A stretch of DNA of 57,395 nucleotides, counting the filler, from Jimgerdemannia flammicorona (taxonomy: Eukaryota): NCBI GenBank assembly GCA_003990765.1. It is 2 parts of 2 records of this genome, joined end to end, with 100 filler letters (N's around TTAATTAATTAA, not from the genome) between each part and the next. Parts side by side here need not be neighbours in the genome. Positions count along the whole stretch, not along the records: positions 1 to 28,653 come from RBNJ01000546.1; positions 28,754 to 57,395 come from RBNJ01000547.1. One strand, given 5' to 3'. Positions 23,498 to 56,372 of this stretch are shown here, piece after piece; positions within the stretch are counted from its first letter, which is position 1, and every line of letters starts with the position of its first letter. The notes beneath the pieces are model-generated. The model searched no databases. It was not told the DNA's origin and worked only from the letters and a program-made list of their open reading frames with translations. A program made the translations under genes and the position numbers.

Positions 23498-25436
23498 TAT
23501 AATAACTCTCACTTCTGCCCCTCTCTTATCCTTTGGATAATTAGGGAAGTGGACTATTACTTAGGGACTTAGTACACAATGTGTACCAAGAAGCCTTCAG
23601 TTTGAGGAAGCGCTCGCTTAAAGTAGTTGTAGTGGTAGTGCCTTATCTTTCAAAGGTCTTTCTCTTGTACCCTATTTCGAGGGTCTTGTTCTTTGCTGTG
23701 CACAGACTGAATTCGCCTTGGAATTCAGGTTCAATGGGTTTACTTAAGTCTTTGGGGATTTATATACCAGTCTCAGTTCTGGCAGAAGTTAGCTAGGCTT
23801 CTGGAGTTTAGTCAGAAACACTAGAGTCACTTAGGTGTCATTACTAAGACTCAGGGGAATGTGTGTGTGTGGGGGGGACTTGATTCTTGTATCAAGGACT
23901 GAACTAAAACTGCTTTATTTCGGATGGAAACTGGGGGGTATTTATACAAGTTGGTCTGCGATTTCTGACTAAGTATGAGTGACTAATTTGGTAACTATAA
24001 TGAGGTTTGTGATCATGACCTTTGTCAGATGGTTTTTGGTAAAAACAACTTTGTGATCAGGACCTCAATTACTAGGCAATGATCAGCTGCTGTGGTAACT
24101 GTTGCTGCAGTGCCGATTGTTGGGGATAAGCTGGATATTGTTTTCCATGTCATTTCGCATCATTCGCATCATTCGTAATTCATATATCATACTTCATTCA
24201 TATGATGACGTCATCGCTGGGTCACATGATCGTTCATTGTTCATCATTCGTCGCTCATTGCATTCATGCTCTTTCATTCTATTACATTCTTCCCTCCTTA
24301 GAAATCAACATCCTCGTTGATTGAGAAATTGAGAACCAGGGGAGAGAAAGGTGGGGAATCCTCCTCAGGGTCATTACCATCTTCTTCAGGGGCAGGGGGG
24401 TTAGTGGTTGCAGATGGCTCACTGTCCAGGATGGAGAAGTCAATGAGGTCTGCAACTGGTTCTTGCATTGGAATAGGTGCTGGTATAGGGGTTCTCCATC
24501 TGATGCAGTTGGGGCCATCCAAGTAGAGCTCTTGATCTTCATGCCTGGGAATATCCATTTGGATAGGTGGTCCTTTAAAGAGGTCAGAGAGACCTTGGAG
24601 CTATTGGTCAGAGTTGTCATTCAGGAGGGGGCTCCAGTAGGGTTTGCAGTCAGTAGACTTGAGAGTAATCCAGGAGTTGGCTTCTTGGGCGACCTTGACT
24701 TCTAGGGCATCAACCTCAGGGAAAGAGAGGTTCTGGAAGTCCTTCAGTTGTATGTAGTTGAGGTTGGGGATCACGAAGAGTGCATGGCATATAATTTGAT
24801 GGACCTTCTTGGCAAGTCTTTGCTCATGCCTGTCGAGGTGAGTCTAGTCAGAGACTTGGTCTGTGGACAGGTCCTTTGCCCATTGGAGGAGTTGATGGCC
24901 AATCTCGTATTCATACCAGATTTCTAGGTAGCTGGTAGCAAGGTAGGCTCTTTCAATGACTTCACAGTGGTTGAGGACATAGTGTCCTAGGTCCTGGCTG
25001 GAGAGGTTAAGGGCCTCTGAGTGGCAGTTCCTTCCTTGGATGGTGACCTGGATGTGTCCAAAGAGGCAGTCAATCTGGCTTGGGAGGGGCTGGCTACGGC
25101 GGGCAGTTTGGCGGTGGGTGGCAGGCATTCTTGTCTTGTCTTTTCTTTGTGAGGAAAGGGGGATGAGAGTTGCAGGGTATTCTTGTCTTGGGTATTTATA
25201 CTTATTCACCCATCTGATGTGACCTTCCTTTGGTCATACTTTCTGGCAAAATGCATGACCTGTACTGTAAGCAGAGCATGTGCTGGTCACATGAGAAAAT
25301 CCTGATTTTAAAGATCTCGTCACCCATCTGTGGTTACACAGGGTTAACAGGTCTTGGTCCACTTTTTTTTTTGTCTGGTTGGTGCATTTGCGAGGGCTGG
25401 CCATCCTTGTCTAGGGTGAGGGCTCCTATTGTCACA
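23498..25436 (-). mobile_element. long 3' LTR (~1.85-1.95 kb) of the chromovirus, containing an ORF
   Basis: Lies downstream of pol; GTATAAATACC (~23940) then AATAAA (~23915) in the same arrangement as LTR 55295-56821; U3 start is either TGTAAC (25338) or TGTGAC (25436); no clear PPT. Confidence 0.6.
24298..25128 (-). pseudogene. LTR-embedded accessory ORF, family B (276 codons, 2 internal TAG)
   Basis: MPATHRQ...WYEYEIG...AKKVHQIICHALFVIPNLNY...DNSDQ*LQGL...DLIDFS...PLVLNF; first ~190 aa align without gaps to 28818-29651; TATAAATA at ~25197. Confidence 0.8.
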
Positions 25437-25777
25437 GCTGGGGGTTCAAACCTCTCGGAAATAGACTTTCTTGTAATCCAAGGCAATTCCTTAGTAACAA
25501 TATCTATCACGTGGATGGACTTAGACTGGTTTTGACATTGTCGGCTTTCCTAAGTTTCACATGAAGTATCTGTCATCATCCAGCGGAGATGATACAGATG
25601 GTGTAAAATGGAGTTGTTCAAATGCATTTTGCTATACTGTACTAGATTGTTCTTTTGCTTGGGTATCTTCTTGTTGGTTATCCATAGTGTTCCTTTTTTC
25701 ACAATGTTCAGTATTATATGTTTCCAGTTAAAAATATGTGGTATCCTTCTGCTTACTGTGTGCTCTTATGCTTAGAG

Positions 25778-28653
25778 CTATAGTTCCTTCCTTTGCTGGG
25801 GGGTGAGTGTTTCCATGTAGTCCTGAAGGGCTTCATGTGCATTCTTCAGGACTTCTTCTTTTTCCCAGGTGGCATCATGGGTGGGGTAACCCTTCCACTT
25901 GATCAGAAAAAAGCGCTTGACTGTTTTGGGATATTTGCGGACCTTGTGGTCAAGTACTTCCTCAATTTCGAATTTCTCATGATCATTAATCCTAATTAGG
26001 GGTGGTGGTGGAACTATACACTCGGGGAATGGGTTTTCATAGTAGTCCACCAATTGGCTGATATGGAATACTGGGTGTACTCGGATATTGTAGGGAAGTT
26101 GTAACTTGTAGTTGACTTCACTGATTTTTTCCATGATCTTGTATGGTCCAATTCTTCTAGCACGGAGTTTCTTGGCTGGTTGTTGTGCCAGGGTATCTGG
26201 GTGGAGGTGGTCTGTTCTAAGCATGACCTTGTTATCAATATTATAGGAGGCTTCTCTTCGTTTCAAGTTCGCATACTTGGTCTGGTAGTCTTGTGCTTCT
26301 ATGAGAGCATCTCTTATCATTTGCGTAAGGTCAGAAATGGTCTCGGCCAGATCTTGGGCTGCTGGGACTGCTGATTTTGCAGTAATACTTGGGGTCCTTG
26401 GGTGTTGACCATGGTTCAGGAAGAATGGAGTCTTCTTTGTAGAGGTTTGCTGACTGTTGTTGTAGGTAAACTCAGCATAGGCTAGGTACTTGTCCCAATC
26501 ATTTTGCTTGTAACAACAGAAGATGCTAAGCATCTGTTTGAGGGTCCTGTTGGTACACTCAGTTTGACCATCAGTCTGAGGGTGGTAGGTAGTAGAGAAC
26601 TTCAGCTTGGTTCCATGGAGGGAGAAAAATGCCTTCCAGAAGTTGCTTGTGAACTTGGTATCTCAGTCAGATACAATGGTGCTAGGTATGCCATGTAGTC
26701 TGAATACTTAATTGAGAAAGATTTCAACAATCTCTGGTGCTGTAGCAGTGGTCTTGGTGGGTGCAAAATGGGCTTATTTACTTAGGCAGTCTATAAATAC
26801 CACAATGGCATCCCATCCTGCCTTGGTCTTGGGGAGTTGGACAATGAAGTCCATCACAATCTGGTCCCAATTGTGACTTGGGATAGGCAAGGGTTGCAGG
26901 AGTCCTGCTGGTAGCTTGTTACCACTTTTGAACCTTTGGTATATCTCGCATGAGGCCACAAAGTCTTTCATATCCTTAGTCATCTTTGGCCAGTAGAACT
27001 CTCTTGAGAGGAGGTTGTAGGTCTTTTCAAAACCAAAGTGTCCTGCTGCAGGAGTATCATGGAGTTCCTGCATGATTTTGAGTCGCAGAGTATCATTGTT
27101 GGGTACAACCACTCTGTCATGGTCCCTATAGATAAGTCCATCATGGTAGGTGAATCTCTTGGCCATTTGCCTTATGGGTTCTGGAATCTCGGCCTCTGGG
27201 TCTTGGTAGAACTGAAGGAAATTCATCAGTGGGCTGTCTTGCTGGTAGCTATCTTTGATCATCTGGGTAAGGTCTCCGATTACTTCAACCATGAAGACAA
27301 GTTTGTCTTCCATGTATCTGGAGAAACCATCAGCCACACGGTTGGTTTTGCCTGGAATATACTTGATTTCTATATCAAAGTTGGCAATGATTTCCATCCA
27401 ACGGGCTTGTCTGTGGGTCAGCATAGGCTGTGTGTGAATATACTGCAGTATATAGTGATCAGTGTAGGCCACAAATGGCTGTTCTAGGAGGAAATGGTGC
27501 CATTCTTGGAGTGCAGTGACAATAGCCAGGAGTTCCTTCTCATGGGTGGTATACCGGGTCTCAGCTGGCTTGAGCTTCTGTGAAAGGTAGGCCACTGGGT
27601 GGTCTTCTCGGCTGAGTACTGCTCCAATAGCAATGTCAGAGGCATCTATGATCAGAGTGAATGGTCTGATAGGATCAGGTGCAATTAGCACTGGGGCCTC
27701 AGTAAGGAGTCTCTTGAGATGGTCCATAGCCAGGGTGCATTCGGGGGTCCATTCAGCTTTGATGTTCACTCCTTTATGGGCCAGGCTAGTCAATGGGGCT
27801 GTAATAGCAGAGTATCCTTGGATAAACCTTCAGTAATAACAGGCAATATCCAGAAAGCATTGGAGTAGCTTGAGGGTAGTGGAGATAGGGATATCCTTAA
27901 GGGCTGATACTTTTTGGGGATCCATGTTGATACCTTCAGCAGAGATGATGTGTCCTAAGTACTCGATCTGGTCTTAGTAGAACTTACACTTGCTCATTTT
28001 GGCATAGAGCTGGTGTTCTCGCAGAAGAGTCAGTACTTGTCTAAGATGGGTATAGTGTAGCTCTACTGTCTTGCTGTAGATTAGTATATCATCAATATAT
28101 ACAAGGACACAGATGTTGAGGAGTGGTCCAAAGATGTCATTCATCAGATACTGGAATGTTGCTGGTGCATTGGTCAATCCAAAAGGCATGACTCGGAACT
28201 GGTAGTGTCCAAACCATGTTCGGAAAGCTGTCTTCTCAATGTCCTTCTCATCAATGAGAATCTAGTGGTAGCCATTTCACAAATCCAATAGCAAAAAGGT
28301 CTTGGCCTTGAAGATTTGGTGTAGCAACTCATCAATCCTGGGCAAGGCATACCGATTCTTGATAGTAATCTTGTTGAGGGCTCTGTAGTCAATATACATT
28401 TGCAGAGAGCCATCCTTCTTCTTGACAAATAGAATTGGGGCTCTAAATGGAGAGTGGCTGGGTTCAATGTATCCTTGGGCCAGTAGTTTGGTCAATTCAT
28501 CCTTGAGAGTCTTGAGCTTAGGTTGAGCCAGTTGATAGATACTCTTGTATGGGGGTTCAGATCCTGGGATAAGATCAATTCCATGTTGGATTTGGTGCTT
28601 GGGTGGAAGTCCTTGAGGATCTTGGAATATATCTTGGAATTCTTCAAACAGTT
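25778..28653 (-). mobile_element. Ty3/gypsy chromovirus pol (RT, RNase H, integrase, chromodomain), decayed
   Basis: [56 protein letters not shown] motif, chromodomain FEIEEVLDH...FLIKWKGYPTHDATWE. Confidence 0.95.
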
Positions 28654-28753
28654 NNNNNNNNNNNNNNNNNNNNNNNNNNNNNNNNNNNNNNNNNNNNTTA
28701 ATTAATTAANNNNNNNNNNNNNNNNNNNNNNNNNNNNNNNNNNNNNNNNNNNN
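28654..28753. other. assembly gap / contig-joining linker
   Basis: N-run flanking TTAATTAATTAA, which has stops in all six frames. Confidence 0.9.
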
Positions 28754-29891
28754 TGGCATTATCCAGTGTTACATGAGAATACCGGTGCTGGCATTATCCA
28801 GTGTAACAAAGAACTTTTTAGAGCAGAAAGTTCAGGATCATGGGAGCTTCATCATCATCATCACTGAAGGAGATGAGATCCGTGAATTCATCATGTAGGT
28901 TGTGCATCTCACATACTTCGTCATTTTCGCGTGCCTCGATGTTGCACGGGATGACATAATCGATGACGTCATCACGTTCGGGTGTGGCGGGGAAATCGGG
29001 AACAAGGTCTGGAGCTCTCCAATCTATGAGATTCTCTTCCACAAAATAGGGGACGAATGTGGGGTCTTGGGGGGATCTAACCCAGATGCTTGGGCCTTGG
29101 AATACTGAGATCAATCCTTGCAGGAATTGGTCTGGGTTGTCCTGAAGGATAGGGTACCAGAAGTCTTCTACTTCTTCGCTGTTGAGGGTGATGGTAGACT
29201 GGGCTTCTGTGGCTACCCTGGCTTCTAGTGCATTGATGTGGCGGGATGACAGGTCTCTGAAGTCTGAGACTCTAACATACTCCAAGTTGGGGATCGACCA
29301 TGGTGCATGCCTGAAGATCTGATGGATCTTCTTTGCTGTCCTTGCCTCACGTAGGTCTATGGGGGTGGCATCTTGTAGCTCTTGAGGGCTGGCCTGTGGG
29401 AACTCCCGGCAGAGGAGGTTTCCTATTTCATATTCCTGCCACATTTGGAGGCATTCGGTGGCAATGGTGATCCTTGTTTCCATTTCACCGCAGTAGAGGA
29501 TAAAGTGATAAGGGTCTGCAGTACCCAGGTTGATGCTAGGAGTCCTTCTTGATCGGGTCCTCATGGCTCTTCTGATGTCTTGAAACATCCTTTCCTCGAC
29601 CGAGATACCTTGATAATTCCTTGACCTTGAGGTTTGGTGGGCAGCAGGCATTTTGTTTGTGGTAAGTCTTTGAGCTATTTTGGGATTGGGGTTCTTGTTG
29701 GTTGCTACTACTGCGGTTCCTTGATCCTTCTTTTATATTCTTCAGGATGCTTGTGCTGTGGTCACAATGACTCACAGTTGGTCATTGTTGCTCATCTCGC
29801 ATGCCGTATGATCTTCTTGTACTCTGATCTGGTGGCTTGTAAAGAAAGGCTGTCTCCTGTGCTGATGTCATCATTCTGGGGTCACTGTTAC
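28754..29891 (-). mobile_element. partial LTR (U3 side), same family as 55295-56821
   Basis: Starts TGTAACAGTGACCCCAGAATG on the minus strand; nearly identical to 55295-56430; truncated by the gap. Confidence 0.88.
28818..29651 (-). CDS. LTR-embedded accessory ORF, family A, intact 277 aa, function unknown
   Basis: Uninterrupted ATG-TAA ORF with an upstream TATAAAAG; two homologues in the window; basic N-terminus, acidic C-terminus. Confidence 0.8.
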   Translation of the reverse strand: MPAAHQTSRSRNYQGISVEERMFQDIRRAMRTRSRRTPSINLGTADPYHFILYCGEMETRITIATECLQMWQEYEIGNLLCREFPQASPQELQDATPIDLREARTAKKIHQIFRHAPWSIPNLEYVRVSDFRDLSSRHINALEARVATEAQSTITLNSEEVEDFWYPILQDNPDQFLQGLISVFQGPSIWVRSPQDPTFVPYFVEENLIDWRAPDLVPDFPATPERDDVIDYVIPCNIEARENDEVCEMHNLHDEFTDLISFSDDDDEAPMILNFLL

Positions 29892-30291
29892 ACTATTTTT
29901 AATTATTAATTATTTAGTTCTTATATTTTTATAATAATAGAATTAGCTTTTTCTATTTTATAAATAACTTCAAATTAGTATTTTTAAAGTTTTATATATT
30001 ATAGTTATACTTATATTAGTTCAGTTATTTTTTAAAGAATTTTTATAACCTTTATAGTATTTTCAACCTTACTATTAAATATTTAATAGATAATTTATAA
30101 CTTATCTTAAATTGATAACTTAGATAAATAATTTTCTTTCAATATAATAGTATTATTATAATATTTATTTTAAATATAGCTAACAGATATAATATATACT
30201 TATACTAATTTTTTTAGTAATTATTTTTTATTGATTATTTAGAATTTAATTAATTAGCAATATTATTATAAGTAATAATAGATAACTTTTA

Positions 30292-31455
30292 TGCCTCTTT
30301 CTCTGCTATCTTACCAGTTACAATAGTTTGGTAGGTAATCTTTTGAGTCTACTTTCCACAATTATTATCTCCTCTATCTTAGGTTGGTTTGCTATACCTA
30401 TTATAGAGCAGTAGAAGAGAGACAATAGTGATGAATTACCCCTTTATTGATATTGGATCAGTGTCTTCTTCACTTTTTCATAGTTTCTAATACCTTTGAC
30501 TGTATCTGGAATATATTTGTTTTAGTGCAGCACCTTTTTCCTTTTGCCATCACCAATATAGTACTGTTTTGGTATATTATAAGCTATGTAGAGAGTTGGT
30601 CAACCTTGGGCATCAAGTGTCCAGTATAGGTTACCTGCAGGTTCTTAGTATCTATAGTAGGGCCCTCTGGCTTTAACAAGCTTCTCAGCAAGTATAGTTC
30701 TGATATAGATGACTGTTTTTTTTGGATATTATCAGGATGGGAGAGGAGATGGCCATCACAGATAGGAGGAAGGGTGATTATAGTGAACCAGTAGGATACT
30801 AGACTGAGAGTAGTCATTGTGGGGCTAGGGCAGGTACTGCTTTGGTGGGACCTTTTGATTGATACAGAGCAGTTAGGTGGTAGGTAATACTCTTGGCTTC
30901 TTTTGGTGACTTGGCAGGTTGGGCTCTAGTCATTGAGAGAGATTGAGGGGCCCGAGGCTACCTATTTCAGATATCTTAGCTGCACTCAACTGGAACCAGG
31001 AGCTGACATAGCAATGTGATCAAGGCCTGTAGGCTTGAGTAGTAGAGTATTGGAGGTCTCCTCCCACTTCACATATAAGTCCTCTACTCATCTTATCTAG
31101 GAGAACCAGACTCTATCCACTGTGATATACTTTAATAAGAGTTTTTTCTTTACCTGTCATTCTTTTTGGAGTAGTAGAGGCTAGTCTCTATTCAGCTCAG
31201 GCATGGCCTTGTATATATATTGGGGTTTTTGGGCATGTACTTTCATATAGCTAGATTCTCCCTAGTGATAGGAAGAGCATAGTGTGCAGAATGAGGTATA
31301 GACCAATATAGGCTATACTGTACCTGATATGATTGAGCTACTGGACAATAGTTAGTCTAGATTCATGGGGAGACAGTGCTTAGTAGATGGTGGGGGAGGG
31401 TTTTGACCTATATAGTCTAGGTTCTCTTCTAATAAAATCCATGAGATATTGAGTC

Positions 31456-31491
<36 letters not shown>
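30292..31491 (+). mobile_element. 1.2-kb non-autonomous poly(A) retroposon, copy 1
   Basis: AATAAA + poly(A) 31460-31491; 15-bp TSD aatagataactttta (30277-30291) / aatagataactttca (31492-31506); homologous to 44366-45553; no RT motifs seen. Confidence 0.8.
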
Positions 31492-31495
<4 letters not shown>

Positions 31496-33120
31496 GATAA
31501 CTTTCACATTTTTGAATATCTTTGAATTTATATCTAATATTAGAGAATTAAGTTTGTGATATAGTATAAGATATAATATCTCTAAACAATAGTATATAAT
31601 AATAAATAATATTTATAAAAAAATTTATTATAATTTAGTTAAAAATAATATCAAAATAATACTCTAACTATGTAATAATAAAAAAGAATAAGAGCTTTTA
31701 AAAAATATAGATTACATTTTATCATATTAATTATTTATAGAAATAATTCAATAAAGTTAAATTATCAAAAATTGTTTTCCTTTTACTCATCAAAAACAAT
31801 ATTATATAATCATTATCTGCAAAGCTCACACATACACTTAATGAGATAGTTACAAATAGAGCTGAGAGTCAACTAAAGTCAATGTAAAATTAACTAAAAA
31901 TTAACTAATCGGCTTAATTACATACAGTCTAACTGTAATATCATCAAGATGTCTCATATGCATTATAGATATCGATAGTAAATCGTTCGCATTGGTGATC
32001 ACATAACTTAGTGAGCTAGTCGACTGCCCTAGTCACATACTATTTAATTTCACTTAACTAAAAAATTGCTACTGGCGAAGAAAATTGGAATTCGATTTAA
32101 TGACGGCTGAATAACATGGTTAGTGCTGAAAATGTAACCTCCTATGTTCCAACAACTGGCGAAAACATATCCCTTCATTATGAGCGACCGCAATCGAGGT
32201 AGCCAAGATGACAAACGAGGCTTTTCATCTTCCGCTTGGTTCTCACCCTGCCAAAAAACATTATGCAAGAACTATACTGCTCCGTCTGCCACCGATATTG
32301 CGCGCTCGTACATCGAATTCTCCAAAACGTCTTTCGGAGCCTATCTGAAGTCGATTAAACGAGGCAAACACGGATGAAGTTTATCCAACTAACCATATGC
32401 TTGGGATCCGCCGCATGGTTCAAACCGTCATCCGTGGAGAGCACCGAGTGCCTTCGGTAGTTAGAATGCCGTTGCCGCACTGAGCGCCTTCGGTGGTTAG
32501 AACGCATCGTTGCTGCACTAAGCGAGGAAGTTGTTTCCGTTGAGTAACACTTGGTCCTTCTCACCAGCTAAGCTTGCCGAGATACGCGAAGGTTGTGAGT
32601 ATACTTGTGACGGACTTCGCAGCAGACGTCAACGCCAAAAACAACCAAGTAAGAATACTGGACGCAAACGTCAAAAACATCACTGGATGGAGAATGCTCG
32701 TGGCGTATCCGAAACAGCGTCAAACTGACCATGAAGGTTCTGGAAGTTCTGGTTCGGAGGAAAACGATGAATGATAGGGAAAGTCTGTCTGCTTTGGATA
32801 TCGGACGTGTGGGGTTTTGGGCAAAAGGTGTTTGGAAGATTGTGGACTTCCGTTGTTGTGAGTGTCACCAGTAGTGTTATAATCGACGACCCATGCGGTT
32901 GCTTAGAACATTTCGTCTTTAGCGGGGGCGAATAAGCGAATAAACAACTCGCTTGTTCCATAATATTACGCCCAAACCACTAATTAAATTGCCTCGCAAA
33001 GGAGTGTCGTTAAATGTTGGCTTCAGACGTGACCGACAACCCCCTAATTTGGCAAGCTCGTAGAGCGCCGTGGGCGTAATGATGTAACGTGAATGATATG
33101 TTCGAGAAGTGATGCAATTG

Positions 33121-34084: not shown

Positions 34085-35317
34085 GTTGGGAGGTGTCAGG
34101 ACACTTCTCGGCGAAATTGTTAGATAAAAGTTTCAAGTGCTCATTGGCGTCTTGGTGCTCCAACAATCAAATAAACACATATCTACCCATGGCTATTACA
34201 TTGAGAAACGAGTAATGTCGAGCGATCGAGTTTCAAGCAAAATTTTTATTTATTAGGGGTATGAGACGAGGTGAGCGATACTGCAAGTACAAAACACGGC
34301 CAACTCCTGTTCCGTCAACTATTTATGACTCTGCAGACCGGGCTTCATGACAATGTCAAACTTTGCAAGTTGCTCACCTCATCAATTTCGTGTCCACTCC
34401 ATAGCCATTACATTATCACATGATCATATAATACGACATATCCATAAGTCGTTGAAGAATCTGACCAAACCCGTGTTTTTATATGTGGCCATATATCCTA
34501 CATCCCATTTATAAAAACACATCTGCTTTTTATGAATTTTAGAACATTGGATTTCCCTCAGATAGGTAATTTGAATTACATTCCGATTCTCCAAATAATT
34601 AAGATAAGTGGCAAATTACAAGGTTGGACAGCTATGTAGATTGGCTTGAGCCTCCAGTTATTTTGTCAAAAAGTAACAAAATGTTCAATAGTTTTTTGTT
34701 CTAAAGGTGCAAGTTCTCTTGTTTGAGTAATGTAAATGATTTCAGTAGTTTTCTAATTAGGTATAGTTCTGCATAATATGGCAAATTCAGTAGACTTCTT
34801 AAATGGTGCAGATTCTGTATAATGTGATAGATTTAGGCAGATTTCTCAGGTAGATGATGATAATTTTCAGGCTTAGTCTGGTAAGTAGATCAAAATATAG
34901 CAAATTTTTCAAGTTCAAAATTGGCAGACTTCTGACAAATAAAGTTATATTGATCAACTGCTTTATTTGTATGAATAAGTTTCTGTAAAGATACATCTGA
35001 CTGACTGGCTTAGATATGTTAAATATGGAAAATTTCTCAGATTCTTCTGACTTAGTCTGATAAGTAGACTAAATCTGCAGACTCCTTTATATTAAAAAGT
35101 AGACCAGAATATAAATAGGCTCACAATTTCTTAGTAGTAACTTATTGATAGATATATCTTTTAAGTATTACAATTCTTGCTAGATTAAGTAACTTTTAAC
35201 AGATATTTCTCCTAAGTATACTAGATAATTGACTTTTGCTTGAATTATTCAGACTAAGGTTTATTCACTCTTATCACTGAGGTATTTTATATAGTTATAG
35301 TTACTAGTCAAGATATG

Positions 35318-36215
35318 TTTTTCTTTAGTATAATTCAGATTACACAACTTCTGACAATACCTTCAATATTATTTTTAGAGAAAAGGTAATAATAACATAG
35401 AAACTGATGAGTATTCTGAGGAGTATGCAGGGCAGAGCAGCATCAGTATATTTGACTGATAGTATGTCAAGAGAAGTTATAGATTAGAAGAGAACCTATT
35501 GGATACTCTTTTTGGTGGACAAGGAGGTAGAAGAGGTAAGACCAGCAGACAGAGGTCTGGGAGAATGAGCTTTACTAATAAGATCAAGATGAGATATCCA
35601 GCAAATAGATTGGAGGGCTAGCTATAGAAGGGCAAGGAGAAGAAGAGGCTGCAGAGTCTGGCAGAGGGGCTCATAGTGACAGTAGTGATAAGGCTAGGAG
35701 AGTAGAGACTAGGAAGAGTAAGACTGCTAATAGAGAGAGAACTGCTAATTTAAAAAAAAAAAATCCAGATATAATGACTAATAGTGTAGCTAGACTAAGG
35801 GAAGGTATGAGGCCTTAAAACCTGACTAATAGTATAACAGATCTGGTAGTAATACTATTACTTAAGAAATTAGTATCTGAATTCATTATCACTTTATACT
35901 TCTGAGGCTTGATAATTATAGCAAAAATGGTTCTAGAGTTTCTGGCTTAGAAGATGAAAGAAACAGTCTCAGTAAAGTTTTTAAAGAGACTGAAAAGAGT
36001 AAAGGTAGGCTTTGAAGAGGAGGAGTTAATGCTGGAAACATTGGAGTAGTAGTGGGAGAAATAGTAATCTTTATAGCTTAGTATCTATACTAGAACTTCA
36101 GAGTAGTATAACTAATAGTGGAGAATATATCTATAATAAAAAAAGAAGTGACCAAGAAACTAATTGTAAATGTTATTAAGAAGTATAGCAATATAGTAGA
36201 TGTTGGCTTCTGATA
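35318..36215 (+). mobile_element. LINE copy D, 5' UTR and ORF1 N-terminal half, strongly decayed
   Basis: 5' end similar to copy B; MSFTNKIK, VSVKFLKRLKRVKVGFEE and YSNIVDVGF match ORF1. Confidence 0.8.
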
Positions 36216-36217
36216 TC

Positions 36218-41894: not shown

Positions 41895-41964
41895 TTTTTG
41901 AATGATGAATAATGTTTCGAAGACAGTCTATTTATTCTGTACAGATTTCACAGGACATGTTAAG

Positions 41965-42168
41965 ACAGGACGTGGTGATTTCGCGACGTGGCAATTTCGT
42001 CATGTGTAAGACGCGCGATTTCGCGGGGACGTGGCAATTTCGTGAAAATGCGAGGATGTGGCAATTTCGTGAAGACGTGAGGACGTGACAATTTCGCGGT
42101 GTGCCATTTTGCGAGGATGTGCAATTTCACGAGGACGCGACAATTTCGTGAAGATGCGCGATTTCGGT
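41965..42168. repeat. CpG-rich tandem repeats in the Tc1 5' region
   Basis: ~9 imperfect units built on (G/A)CAATTTCG(T/C)GA..GACG(T/C)G. Confidence 0.85.
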
Positions 42169-42431
42169 TGCTTAGTACTATGTGGCACAAGTATGCTTGT
42201 GCTCAGAAATGTTGTACCAATATTTATTTAAGAGTATTTTAAACAGTATATTTTTTATTCAAGAGTACTTTATTATTGATGAATTTTGCCTCAAGTAGGC
42301 AGGTGGAACTCGCCGGCATAGTACCCCTGACACCTAAGTCGATAAATCGGGTAGTAGTCATGTGGTACCTGGAATTACGATAAAAGGCCCCGAATCTATT
42401 TCCTGGTCCCCAACCCCAATCACCATCTACA

Positions 42432-45553: not shown

Positions 45554-45555
45554 AA

Positions 45556-45835: not shown

Positions 45836-46239
45836 TGTAATATTTTAGCATAGTTTATTTCTTTTCTTTATCTTTCTTCAATATTCTACAACCTTCCAGT
45901 ACTTTCCAAATGTTTAGAAATCCTTTCTTGGTGCCGAGCATCCTCTAATACTTATTTAGTTAGTCACTAATTGTCTTGGAAACTTGTAGAACTTTATTTG
46001 TCATCATTGTCATCTTTGTCGAGAACTTTCCTCTTGGCATTTTCCTTTGATTTCTCAGATCCTTCCAGATCCTTCTTTTAGATCTTGTATAAATATCTCC
46101 TTTGTTCTTATGAATAAAGCCTCAGAATATTTTCTCTCAGAAATCCTTTGAGAACACTTGAATCCTTAGTATCTCTTTGAGCTACTTAGGACTACCAGAA
46201 TTAGTTGCTTCCTCATTTAGAAACTAGAACCATTATACT

Positions 46240-46250
46240 TGGTAGCAGCA
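46240..46250 (+). promoter_or_regulatory. primer-binding site, probably initiator tRNA-Met
   Basis: TGGTAGCAGC 2 nt after the 5' LTR. Confidence 0.75.
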
Positions 46251-47340
46251 GTGAAGTTACACCTAGCCTTATCAAGACACCTCTCAAGATATCAGTCACA
46301 ACACTATAGAGGACAATGGGTGAAACCCTTCATACAGTACCTATAGTCCAGGCAATGCCTCATACAATCAGTACAATCAACAAGAAGAAGAGGAACAGCA
46401 AAACCCTACTCAGTCAAATGGGACCATCAAGAGTCTTTTGCAGACTGCATTAGCTCAGATTGCTCAACTTCAAGAACGTATAAAAAGAAAGAAAAGCAAG
46501 GCCCTCACTCATACCTTCGCACCCCTACTGACATCAATACATCTAACAGCAGTCACTATCAAGCCTCAGAAGCCTGACACCTTTGATGGGCAAAGAGGAG
46601 GACTGTCTACTGATGCCTGGCTTTTCCAATTGGAGCAATATGGAGAACTGACCAATTTGGAAGAAACAACACTAGTCCAATTTACTGCTACACTCCTTCG
46701 AGAGAATGCTGCAATCTAGTGGCAAAATCATGTCCAGAATACCAGATTCTCTGGCTGAATCAAGACCTGGGGTGAATTCTCTAATGCTATTCAAGGCCAA
46801 TTCAAACTGGTCAATAGCACTAAGGTCATGCGAGACCATCTGGCAAATATCAAACAACTCAAGTCTGTGCAAGCATACAATGCACAATTCCTATCAATCC
46901 TGCTAGAATTACCACATATCACTGAAGACAAGAAGGTTGACAAGTACATCCGAGGCCTGAAAGGTCAAACCCAAGTTCATGTTGAACTAGAAGAACCCAA
47001 GGACCTAGATACAGCAATGAAAATTGCTGATAGGTTTGATGTCATCACCTATGATCATCGCTTTGAACAGAAGAGACTGCCTTTCAACAATAATAACAAC
47101 CACAGAAGGGAGGAACCTAAAGTCAGAACTGTTGGACCTGCCCCCATGGACCTAGACACTATCGACAAGAACAAGAAAGGCAAGCTTATACCTGAGGAAA
47201 AGGAGTGCCTTAAGAAGACTAGAGCCTGCTTCTTTTGCTGTCAGCCTGGTCACATTGCAACCAAATGTCCCAAGAAAACCATGGAACCAAAGAGGATCCT
47301 GGTCTTGTCCAAAGACACTCAAGGTCAACCAGTCGAATAA

Positions 47341-47760
47341 GAAGTTGTACTCAATTTCATACAAGTCAACCCCAAGGCCCAGATCCCTCAAGCACAGTCA
47401 GAAGGAGCCATTGGTTTGGACCTTCAAGCAGTACAACAAGTCACTATTCTGGTACATGAGAGAAGGCTCATCCCAACTGGCCTTTCAGTTGAAATCCCCA
47501 AGGAACATTATGCAAGAATTATACCAAGATCTGGTCTCTGTTTCAAGTACTCATTGGATGTTAGTGCTGGAGTCATAGACCCTGACTTCTAAGGTGAAAT
47601 GCAAGTCCTGCTAGTCAACCACAAGAACTAGCTATATACCGTCAATGAAGGAGATAGAATTGCACAGCTCATTCTGGAGTGAGCCACCCTACCAGTTGTC
47701 AAAGAAGTCACCAAGCTGTCTTCAACCAAGCGAGATCAGAAAGGCTTTGGCAGCACTGAC
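47341..47760 (+). pseudogene. dut: trimeric dUTPase domain between Gag zinc knuckle and protease
   Basis: AIGLDL, IIPRSGL, AGVIDPDF*GE, GDRIAQLI, RDQKGFGSTD (dUTPase motifs I-V). Confidence 0.92.
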
Positions 47761-50700
47761 AAAGTTGCAAACATAGCTGAGAACTGAGCCAATTCAATGC
47801 TCATTTTTAAAGATCCAGTCAAGAGACAAGAACTAGATGTTCTCATAGACAGTGGAGCTGTTGGGAACTTCATCAACAAGAACCTTATCGACAAGCTCAA
47901 GATTCTCACCAAACCAGCTAGCAAGAATGGTGGAGTTGTCACTGCAGATGGCACCATCTTACCAATTGACTCAATTGCCACTAAACTTCCCCTCAAGATC
48001 CAGAAGTATTGGGAACATTTAGATTTCAAGGTAGCACCACTAGGAGACCATGACCTGATCCTAGGCAAACCCTGGCTTATACAGCACAACCCTCAGATTG
48101 ATTGGACCAAGAATGAAGTCACCTTGATTCAAGATGGAGCCAACATTACCATCAAGCCAGACAAGACTCAGACAAGAACCCCAATTGCTATCCTTTCAGC
48201 AATTCAGTTCAAGAAGGCCCTCAAGAAAGCTATCTGTACCTTTGTGGCACTGATCTGACTAAAGAAAGAAGACAAGAAGCTATTAATTAGTGAAAGCATC
48301 AAGTTACTGCTGAATAAGTACAAGGATGTCTTCCCAGACAAACTACCTGGTCTACTACCTTCAAGAGACCATGACCATGAAATCAAGTTGATACCTGATG
48401 CAGCTATACCTAAGAAGAAAATGTACCACATGTCTCTACTCGAGATTGAAGCAGTCAAGAAAGAACTCAATAAACTCATTGAGCGAGAAGCCATTCAATC
48501 AAGCAAGTTACTCTTTGGCTCCCCAGTCCTATTTGTCAAGAAAAAGGATGATACTCTGTGAATGTGCATAGACTATCATGCACTCAACAAGATCACAGTC
48601 AAGAACCATTATCCACTACTGCTCATAGATTAAATCTTTGATGCTCTCAAGAATGCCAAGTACTTCACCAAGATTGATCTCACCTCTGGGTATCACCAAA
48701 TTCAAATCAAGCCAGAAGACATACCCAAGACTGCCTTTATGACACCCTTTGGACTCTATGAGTTTCTAGTCATGACCTTTGGTCTCACCAATGTGCCAGC
48801 AACCTTTCAAGACTTCATACAAACTGTCTTCAAGAATCAGCTCTATATCTTTGTATTTGTATACATTGATGACATTCTGATCTTCAGCAGTACTGAAGAA
48901 GAACACCTCAAGCACATTGAATAAGTCCTCAAGATCCTCCATGAGAACAAGCTCTATGCAAAGCTCAAGAAATGTGAATTTTTCAAGGATTAAGTCAAAT
49001 ACCTTGGACACATTGTATCAGCTAAAGGAATTCAAGTAGACCTAAGGAAAATACAAGCCATTGAACAGTGGTCTGTACCAGCAAACCTCACTGAACTCAG
49101 GTCCTTCCTTGGTCTGGCTGGATACTACCGTCGATTTGTCAAGAACTTCTCTAGTATCGCAGAATCTTTGACAAACCTCCTGCAAAAGGAACCCAACTCT
49201 GACCTCTATGTCCCCTACATCTGGGATGCCTTCTGTCAACAAGCCTTTCAAGAACTCAAGAACTGCCTGACCCATGCACCTGTCCTTAGAAACATGGACC
49301 CAAACTTGAAGTTCATGGTTACTACAGATGCATCTAACTTTGCCATTGGTGCAGTCATTTCTCAAGACAATGGTCAAGGACACCAACCTATTGCCTTTGA
49401 GTCAAGAAAATTGTCCCCAGCAGAACAAAAGCTGGCTACTCATGAAAAGGAACTCCTGGCAATCATACATGCCCTCAAGACCTGGTGATACTATCTAGAA
49501 GGAGTTGAGTTCGACATGATCACTGATCACAGATCCCTTCAGTACATCAACACTCAACTAACCCTTTCTTGCCAACAAGCCAAGTAGAGTCAACTACTTC
49601 AGACTTTTACCCCAAATATCATCTACAAGCCTGGTAAAACTCTAGTTGTACCAGATGCACTCTCAAGGAGACCTGACCTTGCTGCGATTTTACAAGTCAC
49701 TGTGGCATCTGAATTCCTCAACCAGATCAAGAAGGCATATGAACAAGACTCTCTGGTTCTACAAAGGAACACTAAGGAATTCAAGGAAAAGTACACCATC
49801 AAGGACAATCTTGTGTACTATCAAGACAAAGTATATATTCCTGTCAACTCTAAACTACAGTACAAGATTCTTCATGAACACCATGACTCCCCACTAGCTG
49901 GCCACCTTGGAACTGAGAAGACCATCAAGAATATCCAATGAGACTACTACTGGCCAAACATGCTCAAGGAAATCAAGGAGTATGTCCAAAGCTGCGATCT
50001 TTGCCAAAGAAACAAGTCAAGCAACTAAGTACCTACTGGTCTTCTATAACTCTTGCCAATTCTGACCAAGAAGTTCGAACAAGTCACAATGGACTTCATT
50101 GTGCAACTCCCATGAACCAAAACAGGCTATGATGCTATTGTTGTATTTGTGGACCATCTCACTAAGATTACAATTACCAAGCCAACTACAACCAATGCTA
50201 CTACCCCAGAAATTGCAAGAATCTTCTTCAAGACTGTCTTCCACCATTATGGACTTCCCTAAGTAATTATTAGCGACTGCAACCCCAAATTCACAAGTCA
50301 CTTCTGGCAAGCACTCTTCAAGACCCTTAGAACCCAAATTGCTATGTCTACTGCCTTCCATCCTCAAACTGATAGACAGACAGAGCAAATGAACAGAATA
50401 CTTGAACAAATACTCAGAAACTATGTGTCTTATGAGCAAGATGATTGGGACCACTATCTGACCTATGCCAAGTTTGCCTACAATAATGCCAACCAATCAT
50501 CAACTGGTCTTTCCCCATTTCAGCTACTTCATGGTCAAAACCCTGAGACCCCTATAAGTCTAGTCCAATTCCAGCAATCCAGTCACACACAAGTCCCCAC
50601 AGCCCAGAACCTTATCAACAAAATAGATTCTCTTCTCAAGATCGCCACTACAAACCTGCAAAAGGCTCAGCAATATCAAGCTAAGTATGCAGATAAGAAG

Positions 50701-51456
50701 TGGCAAGATATCATATACAATATTGGTGATATGGTTCTACTCAAAGCTGATAATATCAAGGCTCAATCTCAAGTCAACCACCAGTTAGCCAAATTCCAGC
50801 CCAAGTACCTTGGTCCCTTCGAGATCACCAAGCAAGTCTCTACCTGGTCTTACCATCTCAACTTGCCAACAACCATATGTATATACCCAGTATTCCATGT
50901 GTCACAACTCAAGGCCTGGAACCAGTCACCTCCATACCCTGGCTGAATTCGGACACCATCAGCACCAGTCATAGTTGAAGACCACATCAAGTATGAAGTC
51001 AAGAAAATCTTAAACAAATGAGTCTGATACTGTCACACAGAATACCTAGTCAAGTAGATGAGTTATCCTGAATATGATGCTACCTGGGAACCTGCTGCCA
51101 ATCTCAAGAACTTCCAAGACCTCATCCAAGAGTTTGAGCAAAAAGGAACTCATTGACTGCCCATGAGGTTCTCCTCTTGGATAGTAGATGACCTATTGTA
51201 CTGATCAGGCACATTACGCATTGGGGCTCTCTAAGGGATACAGCATCAGAAACAAGAGATACAGGAGAACCCTATAAATTCTACAACCAACAAGGTTTAA
51301 ACCAGTTCTCATCTGATCAAGATGATACTTTGGCCCTCATCTTATACAAGGATGGCTAATCCTTGCCAATGAGTTAGTATATTTAATTTGAAGTTTCTTT
51401 TAGTCTTATTGTTTATTATGTGTAACTTTGAGAATTCAATGAGGACATTGATTCTT

Positions 51457-51469
51457 AAGGAGGGGGAGA
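51457..51469 (+). promoter_or_regulatory. polypurine tract
   Basis: AAGGAGGGGGAGA directly before the 3' LTR. Confidence 0.85.
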
Positions 51470-51871
51470 TGAAACATTTTAGCATAGTTTATTTCTTTTC
51501 TTTGTCTTTCTTCAATATTCTACAACCTTCCAGTACTTTCCAAATGCTTAGAAATCCTTTTTTGGCACCAAGCATCCTCTAATACTTATTTAGCTAGTCA
51601 CTGATTGTCCTGGAAACTTGTAGAACTTTATTTGTCATTATTATCATCTTTGCTGAGAACTTTCCTCTTGGCATTTTCCTTTGATTTCTCAGATCCTTTC
51701 AGATCATTCTTTCAGATCTTGTATAAATATCCCCTTTGTTCTTATGAATAAAGCCTTAGAATATTTTCTCTCAGAAATCCTTTAAGAACACTTGAATCCT
51801 TAGTATCTCTTCGAGCTACTTAGGACTACCAGAATTAGTCACTTCCTCATTTAGAAACTAGAACCATTACA

Positions 51872-54800
51872 ATGAGTACTGCTCCAAGAGCTAGGTCAGA
51901 GGCATCAGTAGTGACTTCATATGGTAGGGTAAAATTTGCTGCTTGATGTATCTTGTTCGGGTCCCCAATTTACCAGATTATTGAAGTCTTTCTCTTATTT
52001 CATGATCCAGAGCTGTTTTCCTTTCTTGTTGTACTTGGTCATTTAGGTGAGGGCAGTGGTGATTTTGGCAAAGTTAGTAACAAATTACCTGTAATAGTTT
52101 GCTAATCCCAGGAATGACTAGAGGTCTTTCAGCTTCTTGGGTCTGGGCTAATCTTTGATTGCAGAGATTTTGCTGGGGTCTACCTTAATTCCATTTGGCA
52201 TGATAATATGTCCAAGGAATTAGATTTCTTTCAGGAGAAATTTACACTTACTGAGTTTTGCAAAGAGTCAGTTTTCTTAGAGTTTCAGTAGTACTAGTTC
52301 AAGGTATTCAAGATGTTCCTCCAGAGTTTTGCTGAAGACTAGGATGTCATCAATGTAGACAATAACAAATTTGTCTAGGTATAGATGCAGGATGTTATTC
52401 ATCAGTATCTAGAAGGTTGTTAGAGTATTGATTAAGCCAAAAGACATAATTAGAAACTTGAAGTGTCTATAGTGAGTTCAGAAGGCTGTCTTGTAAATAT
52501 CTTCTTCTTTCATGGCAATTTGCCAGTAACCATTCCACAGATCAAAAGAGCTTATAAATTGTGGGTTGGTGAGCCTATCAAATATTTCATTGATTCTGGG
52601 TAGTGGGTAACAGTTCTTGATGGTCTGTTCATTGAGGTCACAGTAATCAATGCATATTCACAGGTCTCCTCCTTTCTTAACAATAAAGAGGACTGGTGTA
52701 CCATAGGGTGATATACTGGGTCTGATGAATCCTTGTTCTAGGAGTTCATCAATTTCTTTCTTAAGTGCATTGATTTCTCTTGGTGATATGTGGTAGATTG
52801 ACTTGAAGACTGGCTTGGCATCTGGAATAGTCTTGATGATATGGTCTACTGCTTGTTTAGGAGGTAGGTCTTTCAGAAGCTTCTTTAGAAATATATCTTG
52901 AAATTTCTGGAGTAGTGGTCTGATACAACTGTTGACTTTGGAAAAGTCTTTCTCAGAGTTCTCAAGTTCTCCTTTGGATGGGCAGATGGAGATGGTAAAG
53001 AGAGAGTATTTCTTGGCCAATTTCTTGAGCTATAGCTTGTTTATATAGGTGATCTTTGGTCCAGAGTTACTAGAGCTAAGTGGGTCCTTTTCACCTTGCA
53101 GTTTAAAGTTGTGGCATCCTTTCTTGATGATCAGAGAATGGTTTACCCAATCGATCATAGAGTTCTCTTTTTTTAACCATGGAGTCCCAAGGATGATTTC
53201 ATTGTCTGGAAGTAGTATGATCTGGAGGATAATATGTACTTGGTAGTCACCAATTCGGAAGAGTAGATTGTGGACTTCCTTGCTAATGATATAGGAGGTC
53301 CCATCAGCTGTGGCAACTGCTTGAGTTTGTTGTACTGGAGAGGTGAAGACCTTGAGTCTGCTGGCTGTTTCTTCATTGATGAAGTTGCCTGAGACACCAC
53401 TGTCTATCATAATCTTGACAGGTGCTCAGTTGACAAAAGCTTGAAGTGTAAGCAGTTTGTCTGATCCAATAGTGGTGATTTCAGTTGTAGGAGTTTTTCT
53501 TCTGTTAGTTCTTCTTTGAGCCAGTTCATTGATATAAGAGAAGCAATTATCAATCATTTGGGAAGAGTACATTCTAATACCATGAGAATATCAGCCACTT
53601 GATACATATCTATCTTCAATTTTCTTGTAGAATTATTCTTTTTTGTTCATGATAGGTTGGACTGGGGCCTTGTTTGATGAGCCAAATTCTTTGGATCCTC
53701 AGATGGTGGGCAGTAGTTCAGGGACTTCCTTGACTGTCAGAGTTGACTTAATTTTTTCAAATAGGATCTGGGCAATGCAGAAATCAATGGGAATCTTGAA
53801 GGGTATCCAACTGTAGTTTTGGATGAGGACAATAATTTCACCTGTATAATCCTCATCAATGACTCCTCCTTCTACTGAGAGTCCTTTCAATGCTAGGCTG
53901 CTGTGACAGTATATTCTTTCAACATATCCTTTAGGGATTTGGATACTGATTCCTATGTAGACTTGCTTGACTTCTTGGTTGGAAACTATAGCTTCTTTGG
54001 CTGTATACAGATCATATCTAGCTACTTTTTGACTTCCTTTGGTTGGGGCCTTGGCAGTTTATCTTAACTTGACAAAGTCTAGTATTCTGGTAATCAGGTT
54101 GTTGAGGTAGTGCAAGGTAGTAACAGTTGCTCATGTTGCTGTTCAGGGTTTTCAGTTGGGGCAGGCACTGGTCATATGTCCTGTCTTTTGGCAATAGAAA
54201 TATGCTCTACTTCTTCGAAGTTCATTTCTTTCTCCTTCAGTGAGTTTCTTGAAGGTACTCGGCTAGATGAGTTCATGATTTCTGGATGTCTAAGAGGTGG
54301 ATGTGGAGGGAGCTCAGAATGCTTCATGCTTGGGTTCTTCTTTCTTAGTCTAATTTTTTTTCTTATTATTGAATTGTCTTCAAGACAGAATTGGTCCAGC
54401 TGTTAGGATTTGCTTGACCATAGTCTTGATTCTTGCCAAGCACCATTGTTGGTGATCACAACCAACTGGGTGGCCTTGTTCATGGATTTTTCTAGTAAGC
54501 CATTCAGGTAGGGCATCAAATAAATGGTCTGCTCTTGTATCATTTCATGCTTCATCATTGGCAATATATCCTAGGCCAATAGTGTTCAGGAGTGACTTGA
54601 GTTTTGTATAGAAGGTTTTGAATTCTTCCTTACCATGTATATTAAATTTGAGATTGCAGAGTTTTACTTGAGATTCAGCAATCATAGTTTCACTATAATA
54701 TTGGGCAATCATGAGTTATTTGAGTCCAGGGGCTGTAGGATGGACTCCATATCCTGGGGCATTATTTGCTACATTCTGAGCAACTACTGCAGATCAGGTA

Positions 54801-55294
54801 TCCTATGTAAGGGGTTTTTCAGAAAGGGTTTGTCACTATTCTTCAGCTAGTCTTTGAAAGAATGTAATAACTTGGTGGACATAAGCTGTAGTTATAGCAA
54901 AGAGTTGTTTTAGAGTGTAGTCTTGATTATTTGTCAGAAGGCAGTCAGCAACTCGCTCATTGATCCATTAATTGGCTTTGAAGTTGGTATCAACTACACT
55001 AATGAAGCTTTGGACTTCCTGTGCAGTACCATTGAAGATAGGTAGGCTCAGATTTTTTGTTGGTCAGATCTGTTCAGCTAAGACGTAATAGTTGCTATCT
55101 GGACTATGAGGTCTAGAATCTATTGGTTCACCATGTTGTTTACTAGAGGTGATTGGACTGCTAGTAGTGGTGTTACTAGTACTACTTGGGGTACTGGTGC
55201 AGAGTGTGATAGGGTTCTTTAGGTCTGTATAAGTTGCTGGAGTAATAGTTATAGGTCTGGAGTAAGGGCTCAATAGATAGCTATTTGTTGCTGT
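51872..55294 (-). mobile_element. older Ty3/gypsy element (gag, dUTPase, PR, RT, start of RNase H), interrupted by two younger LTR elements
   Basis: MIDSGVSGNFI, IILGTPWL, SPYGTPVLFIVKK, YIDD, DASD; gag-like PIFNGT motif near 55030. Confidence 0.9.
53675..54080 (-). pseudogene. dut: second dUTPase domain, upstream of the protease
   Basis: ARYDLY, HSSLALKG, GGVIDEDYTGEI, CIAQIL, *GSKEFGSS. Confidence 0.88.
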
Positions 55295-55535
55295 TGTAAC
55301 GGTGACCCCAGAATGATGACATCAGCACAGGAGACAGCCTTTCCTTACAAGCCACCAGATCAGAGTACAAGAAGATCATACGGCATGCGAGATGGGCAAC
55401 AATGACCAACTGTGAGTCATTGTGACCACAGCACAAGCATCCTGAAGAATATAAAAGAAGGATCAAGGAACCGCAGTAGCAGCAACCAATAAGAACCCCA
55501 ATCCCAAAATAGCTCAAAGACTTACCACAAACAAA

Positions 55536-56372
55536 ATGCCTGCTATCCGCCAAACCTCAAGGTCAAGGAATCATCAAGGTATCTCGGTCGAGAAAAGGAT
55601 GTTTCAAGACATCAGAAGAGCCATGAGGACCTGCTCAAGAAGGACTCCTAGTGTCAACCTGGGTACTGCAGACCCTTATCACTTTATCCTCTACTGCCGT
55701 GAAATGGAAACAAGGATCACCATTGCCACCGAATACCTCCAAATATGGCAGGAGTACGAAATAGGAAACCTCCTCTGCTGGGAGTTCCCACAGGCCAGCC
55801 CTCAAGAGCTACAAGATACTACCCCCATAGACCTACGTGAGGCAAGGACAGCAAAGAAGATCCATCAGATCTTCAGGCATGCACCATGGTCAATCCCCAA
55901 CTTGGAGTATATTAGAGTCTCAGACTTCAGAGACCTGTCATCCCGCCGAATCAATGCACTAGAAGCCAGGGTGGCTACAGAAGCCCAGTCCACTATCACC
56001 CTCAACAGCGAAGAAGTAGAAGACTTCTGGCACTCTATCCTTCAGGACAACTCAGACCAGTTCCTGCAAGGGTTGATCTCAGTATTCTAAGGCCCAAGCA
56101 TCCAGGTCAGACCTCCCCAGGACCCCACATTTGTCCCTTACTTTGTGGAAGAGAACCTCATAGACTGGAGAGCTCCAGATCTTGTCCCTGATTTCCCCGC
56201 CGAATGTGATGACGTCATCGGCGATGACGTCATCCCACGCGACATACCCGAAGCACGCGAACCGCGTGACGAAGTACACGAAACGCGCGACCTGCATGAA
56301 GAGTTCGCAGATCTCATCTCCTTCAGTGATGATGATGATGAAGCTCCCATGATCCTGAACTTTCTGCTCTAA
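55536..56372 (+). pseudogene. LTR-embedded accessory ORF, family A, copy 2 (278 codons, one CAA->TAA at 56088)
   Basis: Near-identical protein to 28818-29651. Confidence 0.85.

Follow-up and report, generated by a model that had tools for sequence, protein, structure and literature searches.

Background

Accessory genes in or near the unique 3' region (U3) of long terminal repeats (LTRs) are known from mouse mammary tumour virus (MMTV), lentiviruses and foamy viruses. LTRs are usually treated as non-coding control regions and are masked by annotation pipelines. This report concerns an open reading frame (ORF) of 277 codons found with LTRs of Ty3/gypsy retrotransposons in Jimgerdemannia flammicorona, in a stretch of 57,395 nucleotides (nt) from assembly GCA_003990765.1 (records RBNJ01000546.1 and RBNJ01000547.1 joined end to end), called the window below. 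Taken together, the evidence suggests that it is probably an accessory gene in the U3 of 1.5-1.7 kb LTRs of a chromodomain Ty3/gypsy group, provided with its own signals as a putative self-contained unit and coding for a candidate nuclear regulator. That accessory genes can be borne in U3 is already known; the one described here is in a Ty3/gypsy LTR, and its protein has neither a named relative nor a fold match.

The superantigen gene sag of MMTV is comparable in that a whole protein ORF lies inside the U3 of the LTR and hence twice in the provirus, once at each end. Its product, Sag, belongs to the type II membrane glycoproteins. The element that carries sag is a vertebrate retrovirus, whereas the host here is a chromodomain Ty3/gypsy element and the protein is predicted to be soluble, helical and acidic, without sequence likeness to Sag. 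The U3 position is the only feature in common with Sag-type genes, and none of 19 members of the protein family matches a Sag-related Pfam family at E ≤1.

Foamy viruses carry Tas/Bel1 and Bet as 3' accessory genes that reach into U3 and are served by an internal promoter. Tas has about 300 amino acids with an acidic activation domain at the C-terminus, and the internal promoter is situated in env. The ORF described here resembles Tas as a 3' accessory gene of a retroelement with a separate promoter, and also in its general build. The two differ in that the TATA box, the ORF and the poly(A) signal here all lie within the LTR; no homology was detected, and any activity of the present protein is putative. 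Ogre elements, which are LTR retrotransposons, carry ORF1 as an extra ORF.

Boty in Botrytis has an antisense extra ORF, brtn (PMC8365987, citing Zhao et al. 2011), and a Rev-like accessory protein named CERV is reported for Cer1 (PMC10309623). Like the present ORF, brtn, CERV and Ogre ORF1 accompany gag and pol as accessory ORFs that are specific to their lineages and lack known domains. Unlike it, they are internal to their elements, with none described in an LTR, and no sequence likeness to it was found. The LTRs of Cassandra, a terminal-repeat retrotransposon in miniature (TRIM), carry a 5S rRNA-like gene (10.1101/2023.07.14.548913; PMC10886601) and are similar in holding a gene-like unit with its own promoter. 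That unit is a small-RNA gene of the RNA polymerase III (Pol III) type in a non-autonomous plant element, whereas the one here is a protein gene of the Pol II type, with pol present in family A and gag in family B.

In the literature searched, with subscription journals and supplements outside its scope, no fungal or plant LTR retrotransposon was found to have a protein ORF inside its LTR, and the MMTV superantigen was the sole 'LTR ORF' met there. The LTRs of crapaud are 339-443 bp long with a variable U3, and an LTR ORF is not described for them (PMC10787394). Tcn1-like LTRs are 440 bp (PMC2864245), and the 'LTR ORF' of PMC12037069 refers to polyprotein ORFs.

Results and discussion

Copies of the ORF in the window

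The first-pass annotation of the window had reported three copies of the ORF, one of them intact. A tblastn search of the whole window with the intact ORF gave exactly three strong matches, the six others all having E >1, and together with a check of the reading frames it confirms this count:

28818-29651, minus strand: intact ORF of copy B1, 277 codons open (tblastn 29651-28821, 100%)
55536-56372, plus strand: ORF of copy B2, with one premature TAA at 56088-56090
24298-25128, minus strand: ORF of copy A, with in-frame TAG at 24844-24846 and 24601-24603 and no frameshift

B2 matches B1 in 245 of 280 columns over 55536-56369 (E 6e-155; 88% amino-acid identity), and its length differences relative to B1 are all in-frame. 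Copy A is more distant, with 89 of 234 positions identical (38%), one gap and E 8e-44 over 25128-24430. The motifs W.EYEIG, AKK.HQI..HA..IPNL.Y and DN.DQ.LQGL and the tail DLI.F...P..LNF, noted in the first-pass annotation, are all found in alignments A1 and A2.

Position of the ORF in the LTR

Judging from the arrangement of sequence signals, the ORF very probably lies inside the LTR, in U3. The family-B features that bear on this are:

55295-56821 (end alternatively 56834), plus strand: family-B LTR of B2, a 5' LTR with gag 3' of it and TGTAAC...GTGACA ends
28754-29892, minus strand: family-B LTR fragment of B1, cut by the gap at 28753 and starting at 29892 beside AT-rich DNA
56582-56593 and 56611-56616, plus strand: LTR core promoter TGTATAAATACC, some 210 nt past the stop codon of the ORF, then AATAAA 18 nt later
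56382-56508, plus strand: 35-nt unit repeated in tandem 3.6 times, immediately beyond the ORF stop
56942-57394, plus strand: family-B gag from its start, cut off by the end of the window

The homology between B1 and B2 begins exactly at 29892 and 55295 respectively, with TGTAAC, in unrelated flanks, and 55295-56821 carries terminal TG...CA with short inverted ends. Public contigs from sequencing runs were aligned to the B2 region (54900-57395). Other sequence is joined to 55295 in eight of them (three from run X1, two from X2 and three from X4), ending in CAGGAG(G/A)AAGA. In these junction contigs the sequence before 55295 ends with ...TTATTCAGGAGGAAGA or ...CAGGAGAAAGA, which resemble the polypurine tract aaggagggggaga of family C. 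A polypurine tract abuts 55295 in the public contigs, which means that in other copies the unit comes after the 3' end of the internal region of an element.

Family C (45836-51869) is a complete Ty3/gypsy element in the window without the ORF. Its LTRs are 400 bp long and 94% identical, its polypurine tract abuts the 3' LTR, and a sequence resembling a primer-binding site (PBS), TGGTAGCAGCAG, follows the 5' LTR. In family B the ORF is followed by CTTGTATAAATACC and AATAAA, a core that matches these 400-bp LTRs, and TGTATAAATA(C/T)C with AATAAA is common to family A, family B, the metagenome contig L001 and both family-C LTRs. The family-C cores, at 46086 and 51720, are homologous to the cores downstream of the A and B ORFs. 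Since the core after the ORF is homologous to the promoter and poly(A) region of the family-C LTR, the ORF is placed in U3. The earlier placement of the family-B ORF between the TG start of the LTR (55295) and the LTR's TATA (56582-56593) and poly(A) signal (56611-56616) thereby holds.

It had also been proposed that this LTR is followed by a PBS and gag. The gag part stands, in that the frame from 56942 matches the N-terminus of P0024 with 30% identity, 93% query coverage and E 1e-13. P0024 is a protein of 679 amino acids with an aspartyl protease domain and a zinc-knuckle match that is weak and below threshold. As to the PBS, the sequence after 56821, ACTTAGTGCCCATTGGCTGGTGATTC, is unlike the PBS-like sequence of family C, and no PBS was confirmed there; ARAGORN detected no tRNA gene in the window to compare it with.

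In family A the corresponding features are on the minus strand:

23628-25338 (both ends approximate), minus strand: LTR-like unit 3' of pol, delimited by comparison with family B (TGTAAC at its start, ...CCACTACA at its end)
23937-23948 and 23914-23919, minus strand: core promoter TGTATAAATACC, then AATAAA, after ORF A
25778-28653, minus strand: pol with reverse transcriptase, RNase H, integrase and chromodomain; stop at 25778, 5' end cut by the gap

TGTAAC at about 25338 marks the 5' limit of the unit, and ...CTACA at about 23628 its 3' limit.

Some observations weigh against placing the ORF in U3, and several of them also favour the alternative that the ORF is internal and lies outside the repeated LTR, being an additional first ORF ahead of gag in family B and an additional last one behind pol in family A. 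A complete element with the ORF is absent from the window: the B2 element extends beyond the window edge, the gap truncates B1, and the 5' half of the family-A element is missing. The ORF was accordingly not observed in the two LTRs of any single element, and neither a target-site duplication nor a PBS was found for the ORF-bearing elements in the window. The family-A boundaries are drawn by likeness alone, with about 440 nt between the pol stop and the proposed LTR start and no clean polypurine tract abutting it. The contigs with the polypurine junction are short and stop before the ORF. An internal ORF is nevertheless very improbable, in that it demands opposite positions in two related families. 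It is also at odds with the TGTAAC start as the exact point where two independent insertions begin to match, with the polypurine-like tract that precedes 55295 in eight contigs from three runs, and with a canonical LTR core of TATA and AATAAA downstream of the ORF. Contig depth points in the same direction, with a summed depth over the unit about 2-14 times that over gag, which is a poor measure. By the same poor measure, summed depth in run X1 is about 1000-2500 in most LTR bins and 17.5 at the variable tail (56244-56327); it drops in the bin from 56832 and is 400-930 in the bins from there on, which cover the leader and gag.

The best share of the DNA in public runs was 0.30, in soil metagenomes, and parts of the LTR were also present in rhizosphere metagenomes. 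None of 12.4 million raw reads from run X23, which carries the same species label as X4, matched 54900-57395.

The B1 contig breaks within the 35-nt repeat, and the contigs from run X4 skip one 35-nt unit.

B1 and the family-A pol stand next to each other in the window and might be taken for one chimeric element. This was ruled out: window positions 28654-28753 consist of N44, TTAATTAATTAA and N44, an assembly gap or contig-join linker, and the sequences on either side therefore need not adjoin in the genome. B1 is cut by this gap, and its adjacency to the family-A pol is for that reason no genuine junction.

Evidence for a protein-coding gene

From its pattern of substitutions, the ORF is a genuine protein-coding gene under purifying selection. 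The ratio of nonsynonymous to synonymous substitution rates (dN/dS, Nei-Gojobori) is 0.255 between B1 and B2, 0.20 between B1 and L001 and 0.27 between B1 and A. Over all comparisons it is 0.19-0.27 within and between lineages, well below 1, which agrees with the purifying selection proposed in the first-pass annotation. Synonymous sites are saturated between lineages (dS 1.8 to >2.6). In the first 215 codons the corresponding ratio of proportions of differences (pN/pS) is 0.27 for B1 and B2 (bootstrap 0.14-0.50) and 0.31 for B1 and L001 (0.25-0.40). The N-terminal domain has pN/pS 0.27-0.33 across comparisons, with bootstrap upper bounds of at most 0.50, and the acidic tail is far freer between lineages (0.7-0.85). 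Mismatches between B1 and B2 are distributed over codon positions 1, 2 and 3 as 26, 13 and 36.

Length changes fit the same pattern. In public contigs aligned to B2 the sole indel within the ORF is an insertion of 3 nt, and a deletion of 3 nt at the stop codon (56371) preserves TAA. All eight indels listed for the non-coding segment 56623-56745 are of 1 nt each. The M-P start is kept in all nine family sequences that reach the N-terminus.

The ORF might instead be a by-product of conserved non-coding LTR sequence, with no protein made. Stops interrupt two of the three copies in the window, which speaks for this and against a gene. The LTR flanks are also better conserved than the ORF: B1 and B2 differ at 6 of 305 positions (2%) in the flanks (55295-55535 and 56373-56436) and at 45 of 660 (6.8%) in the first 660 nt of the ORF (55536-56194; Fisher p = 0.001). 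The flanks being more alike than the ORF, it follows that the cis sequences are constrained at least as much as the protein, or that the LTRs are recombinant, and this too tells against the coding interpretation. A by-product of this kind is extremely improbable in view of dN/dS values of 0.19-0.27, a protein conservation of 38-55% identity that persists despite saturated synonymous sites, and frames of 246-342 codons that are open in at least four lineages. The single indel listed within the ORF in public contigs, which is in-frame, and the start conserved in nine of nine sequences are likewise at odds with it.

Relatives and homology searches

On sequence comparison, the ORF family is present in at least four divergent lineages. 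Six matches to the protein were found among 5.77 billion proteins, and a profile search of 1.84 billion cluster representatives also gave six. All protein relatives come from short metagenome contigs in JGI/IMG or ENA; none is from NCBI/UniRef, and none is named beyond 'hypothetical protein'. Intact relatives have 271 amino acids (B-like), 323 (L001-like), 342 (A-like) and 246 (a fourth, more distant lineage).

A scan of metagenome contigs with P0001 gave one locus, L001 (1345 nt), which has the same layout of TATA, ORF and LTR core as the window families. The same type of scan with alignment A1 gave 595 pattern matches and no relatives. Among viral contigs there was no match with B1 and one match of 28 residues with A1 (L002, E 1e-3), judged to be due to chance, and prokaryote genome contigs held no relative when A1 was the query. 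No longer or fused forms of the ORF were found among 8000 candidates, which is weak evidence.

The ORF matches no gag, env or pol. An hhalign comparison of A5 with the gag-protease P0024 gave a probability of 0.1%. No Pfam family was found for B1, nor for any of 19 family members at E <0.01; the best row among them, ATG5_HBR in three members (E 0.012), is at chance level. A search of PDB sequences with profile A2 gave nothing at E ≤10. In the window, tblastn with the family-B gag matched only itself.

LTR retrotransposons do capture host sequence. The ORF could derive from a host gene that entered an LTR in a single capture event and was kept as a passenger without a role for the element, and the protein has no retroelement-like domain. 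Such an origin is very unlikely here. No relative of a host type was found, all matches being short metagenome contigs, and L001, the single contig fetched, shows the TATA, ORF and LTR-core layout. The frame is kept across lineages at dS 1.8 to >2.6, and a passenger would not last over such distances.

Upstream promoter signals and a putative transcription unit

The ORF had been credited with a TATA box of its own, and such a box is present in B2. Equivalent boxes are found in the other copies and in L001:

55450-55457, plus strand: TATA box of the B2 ORF (TATAAAAG); start codon 86 nt further on, no ATG in the leader
29730-29737: equivalent TATA in B1
about 25193-25200 (motif match 25191-25202): equivalent TATA in family A
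positions 4-11 of L001: equivalent TATA

The distance from TATA to ATG is 86 nt in family B, 65 nt in L001 and 72 nt in family A, and the leaders are without ATG in all three lineages. The start context ACAAA..AATGCCTGC (ACAAA..AATGCC) is conserved, and the protein starts MP. In family B the first AATAAA past the ORF stop is that of the LTR itself.

These signals suggest that each LTR, whether 5', 3' or solo, may be a self-contained transcription unit. An mRNA of about 1.1 kb would start at the upstream TATA, read through the ORF and end at the poly(A) site of the LTR. For the genomic RNA the predicted start is at the core TATA, some 1.1 kb downstream. With AATAAA about 20-30 nt after the core TATA, the genomic RNA would be without the signal at its 5' end, as this spacing and the behaviour of retroviral LTRs suggest. 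RNA from the upstream TATA would contain AATAAA. Two points count against a transcript of this kind: none of the public runs listed as containing the query sequence is an RNA run, and a TATA-like word is weak evidence at 43% GC.

A protein gene wholly within the LTR would be present in two copies per element and would outlast the element as a gene in solo LTRs. Solo LTRs would then be possible sources of a trans-acting element protein, beyond their role as promoters.

Protein architecture and possible function

In three of the four tabulated sequences that start with MP, the N-terminus is arginine-rich, its first 40 residues including 9-10 lysines and arginines and having a net charge of +6 to +8. 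In the A-like P0008 the net charge of this segment is only +1. The tail of 60-120 residues is disordered, has a net charge of -19 to -30 and contains the conserved motifs DLI.F and P..LNF(.L).

Structure prediction gives a helical core of about 110 residues followed by a small beta hairpin. In the second AF2 model the predicted local distance difference test (pLDDT) is 71-95 for the helical core at residues 60-160 and <35 for the tail. Foldseek searches of PDB and BFVD gave nothing at E ≤0.001. The best VIA-align scores were Z 4.2 (9hyu_M, 69 residues, root-mean-square deviation 2.3) and 4.1 (3o2q_A), which are in the common range for the tool. Helical DNA-binding domains of the ParB/SopB/VirB/KorB type appear in 5 of 50 VIA-align rows at Z 2.9-3.8, too weak for use. 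The best ESM Atlas score, 0.88, is to an unnamed cluster and serves as a lead only.

From its composition, the protein may tentatively be regarded as a trans-acting nuclear factor that would regulate the LTR of its own element, much as an acidic activator does; this is the reading favoured here, at low confidence. This reading of function is weakened by the fact that it draws on composition only, and by AF2 models of low confidence (mean pLDDT 55.4 and 56.7). About as likely is a product that handles RNA, by Rev- or CERV-like export, packaging or translation, or that counters silencing, and is not a transcriptional activator; this too is a doubtful assignment. It would agree with the arginine-rich N-terminus of three of the four tabulated sequences and with the conserved hydrophobic motifs DLI.F and P..LNF.L at the C-terminus, and CERV provides a reported precedent for a Rev-like accessory protein. 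On the other side, no likeness to such proteins in sequence or fold was seen with Foldseek (PDB and BFVD) or VIA-align, and composition cannot tell RNA roles from an acidic activator.

If the activator reading is extended to the whole unit, every 5', 3' and solo LTR might express a trans-acting nuclear factor that activates the LTR promoter or shields it from silencing, with the coding sequence serving as a U3 enhancer. This is a speculative model, offered as one possibility. If it is true, solo LTRs left by recombination would go on helping the family, and a regulatory strategy known so far only from complex retroviruses would be present in a plain Ty3/gypsy element. 'Complex' regulation via accessory genes in or near U3 would then have arisen outside retroviruses. 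As the family has neither an annotated member nor a model-based fold match, its function would be new biology.

CpG islets and TGACGTCA sites

It had been noted that CpGs survive around the 3' part of the ORFs. This is the case in all three copies, where the observed/expected ratio is 1.22-1.75 vs 0.24 for the whole window:

56195-56344, plus strand: CpG islet of B2 in the acidic-tail codons, 19 CpG, observed/expected 1.62, with TGACGTCA at 56210-56217 and 56225-56232
28992-28843, minus strand: CpG islet of B1, observed/expected 1.22
24139-24288: CpG islet of family A, observed/expected 1.75, with TGACGTCA at 24206-24213, after the ORF stop

The TGACGTCA palindrome occurs four times in the 57-kb window, each time in an ORF-bearing LTR and within a CpG islet (24206, 28964, 56210 and 56225). 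The expected number is 0.22, and 0 of 100 shuffles reached four. TGACGTCA may be a U3 enhancer of the ATF/CREB type. In family B, GATGACGTCATC within the acidic-tail codons reads D-D-V-I. The motif is in codons in family B and after the stop in family A. It therefore holds its position, some 280-370 nt ahead of the core TATA, independently of the reading frame. The coding 3' part in family B thus reads as a candidate for a double role, as codons and as an enhancer-like CpG islet of U3. The islet is also the peak of divergence between B1 and B2, with 39 of the 81 differences (mismatches and gap columns) falling in 120 nt.

Other features of the window

The ESM Atlas clusters near the family-A RNase H-integrase have Streptophyta or Basidiomycota as their commonest phylum. 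In family C the coding regions for gag, protease, reverse transcriptase, RNase H and integrase are split over several frames. Another gypsy fragment is found at 52167-54058 on the minus strand, with a dUTPase domain (53702-54058) beside an aspartyl protease (53033-53425), and its reverse transcriptase stretch is 65% identical to that of family C.

The segments 4546-9926 and 15612-21005 form an inverted pair of 5.4 kb with 84% identity and contain reverse transcriptase fragments. The GC skew of the two arms is extreme and opposite (-0.44 to -0.48 vs +0.38 to +0.49), the strand in reverse transcriptase sense being G-rich and C-poor. Between the arms, at 10-14 kb, is an AT-rich core (25-31% GC).

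AT-rich blocks at 10001-14000, 29893-32000 and 34101-42000 have 28-35% GC and a TpA/ApT ratio of 1.0-1.14, which is mildly similar to the effect of repeat-induced point mutation (RIP). The segment 30294-30862 matches 45550-44987 in inverted orientation with 77% identity. A fragment of glycosyltransferase family 8 at 42384-42860 on the plus strand (E 1e-10) is the sole non-transposon Pfam match found among the large ORFs of the window.

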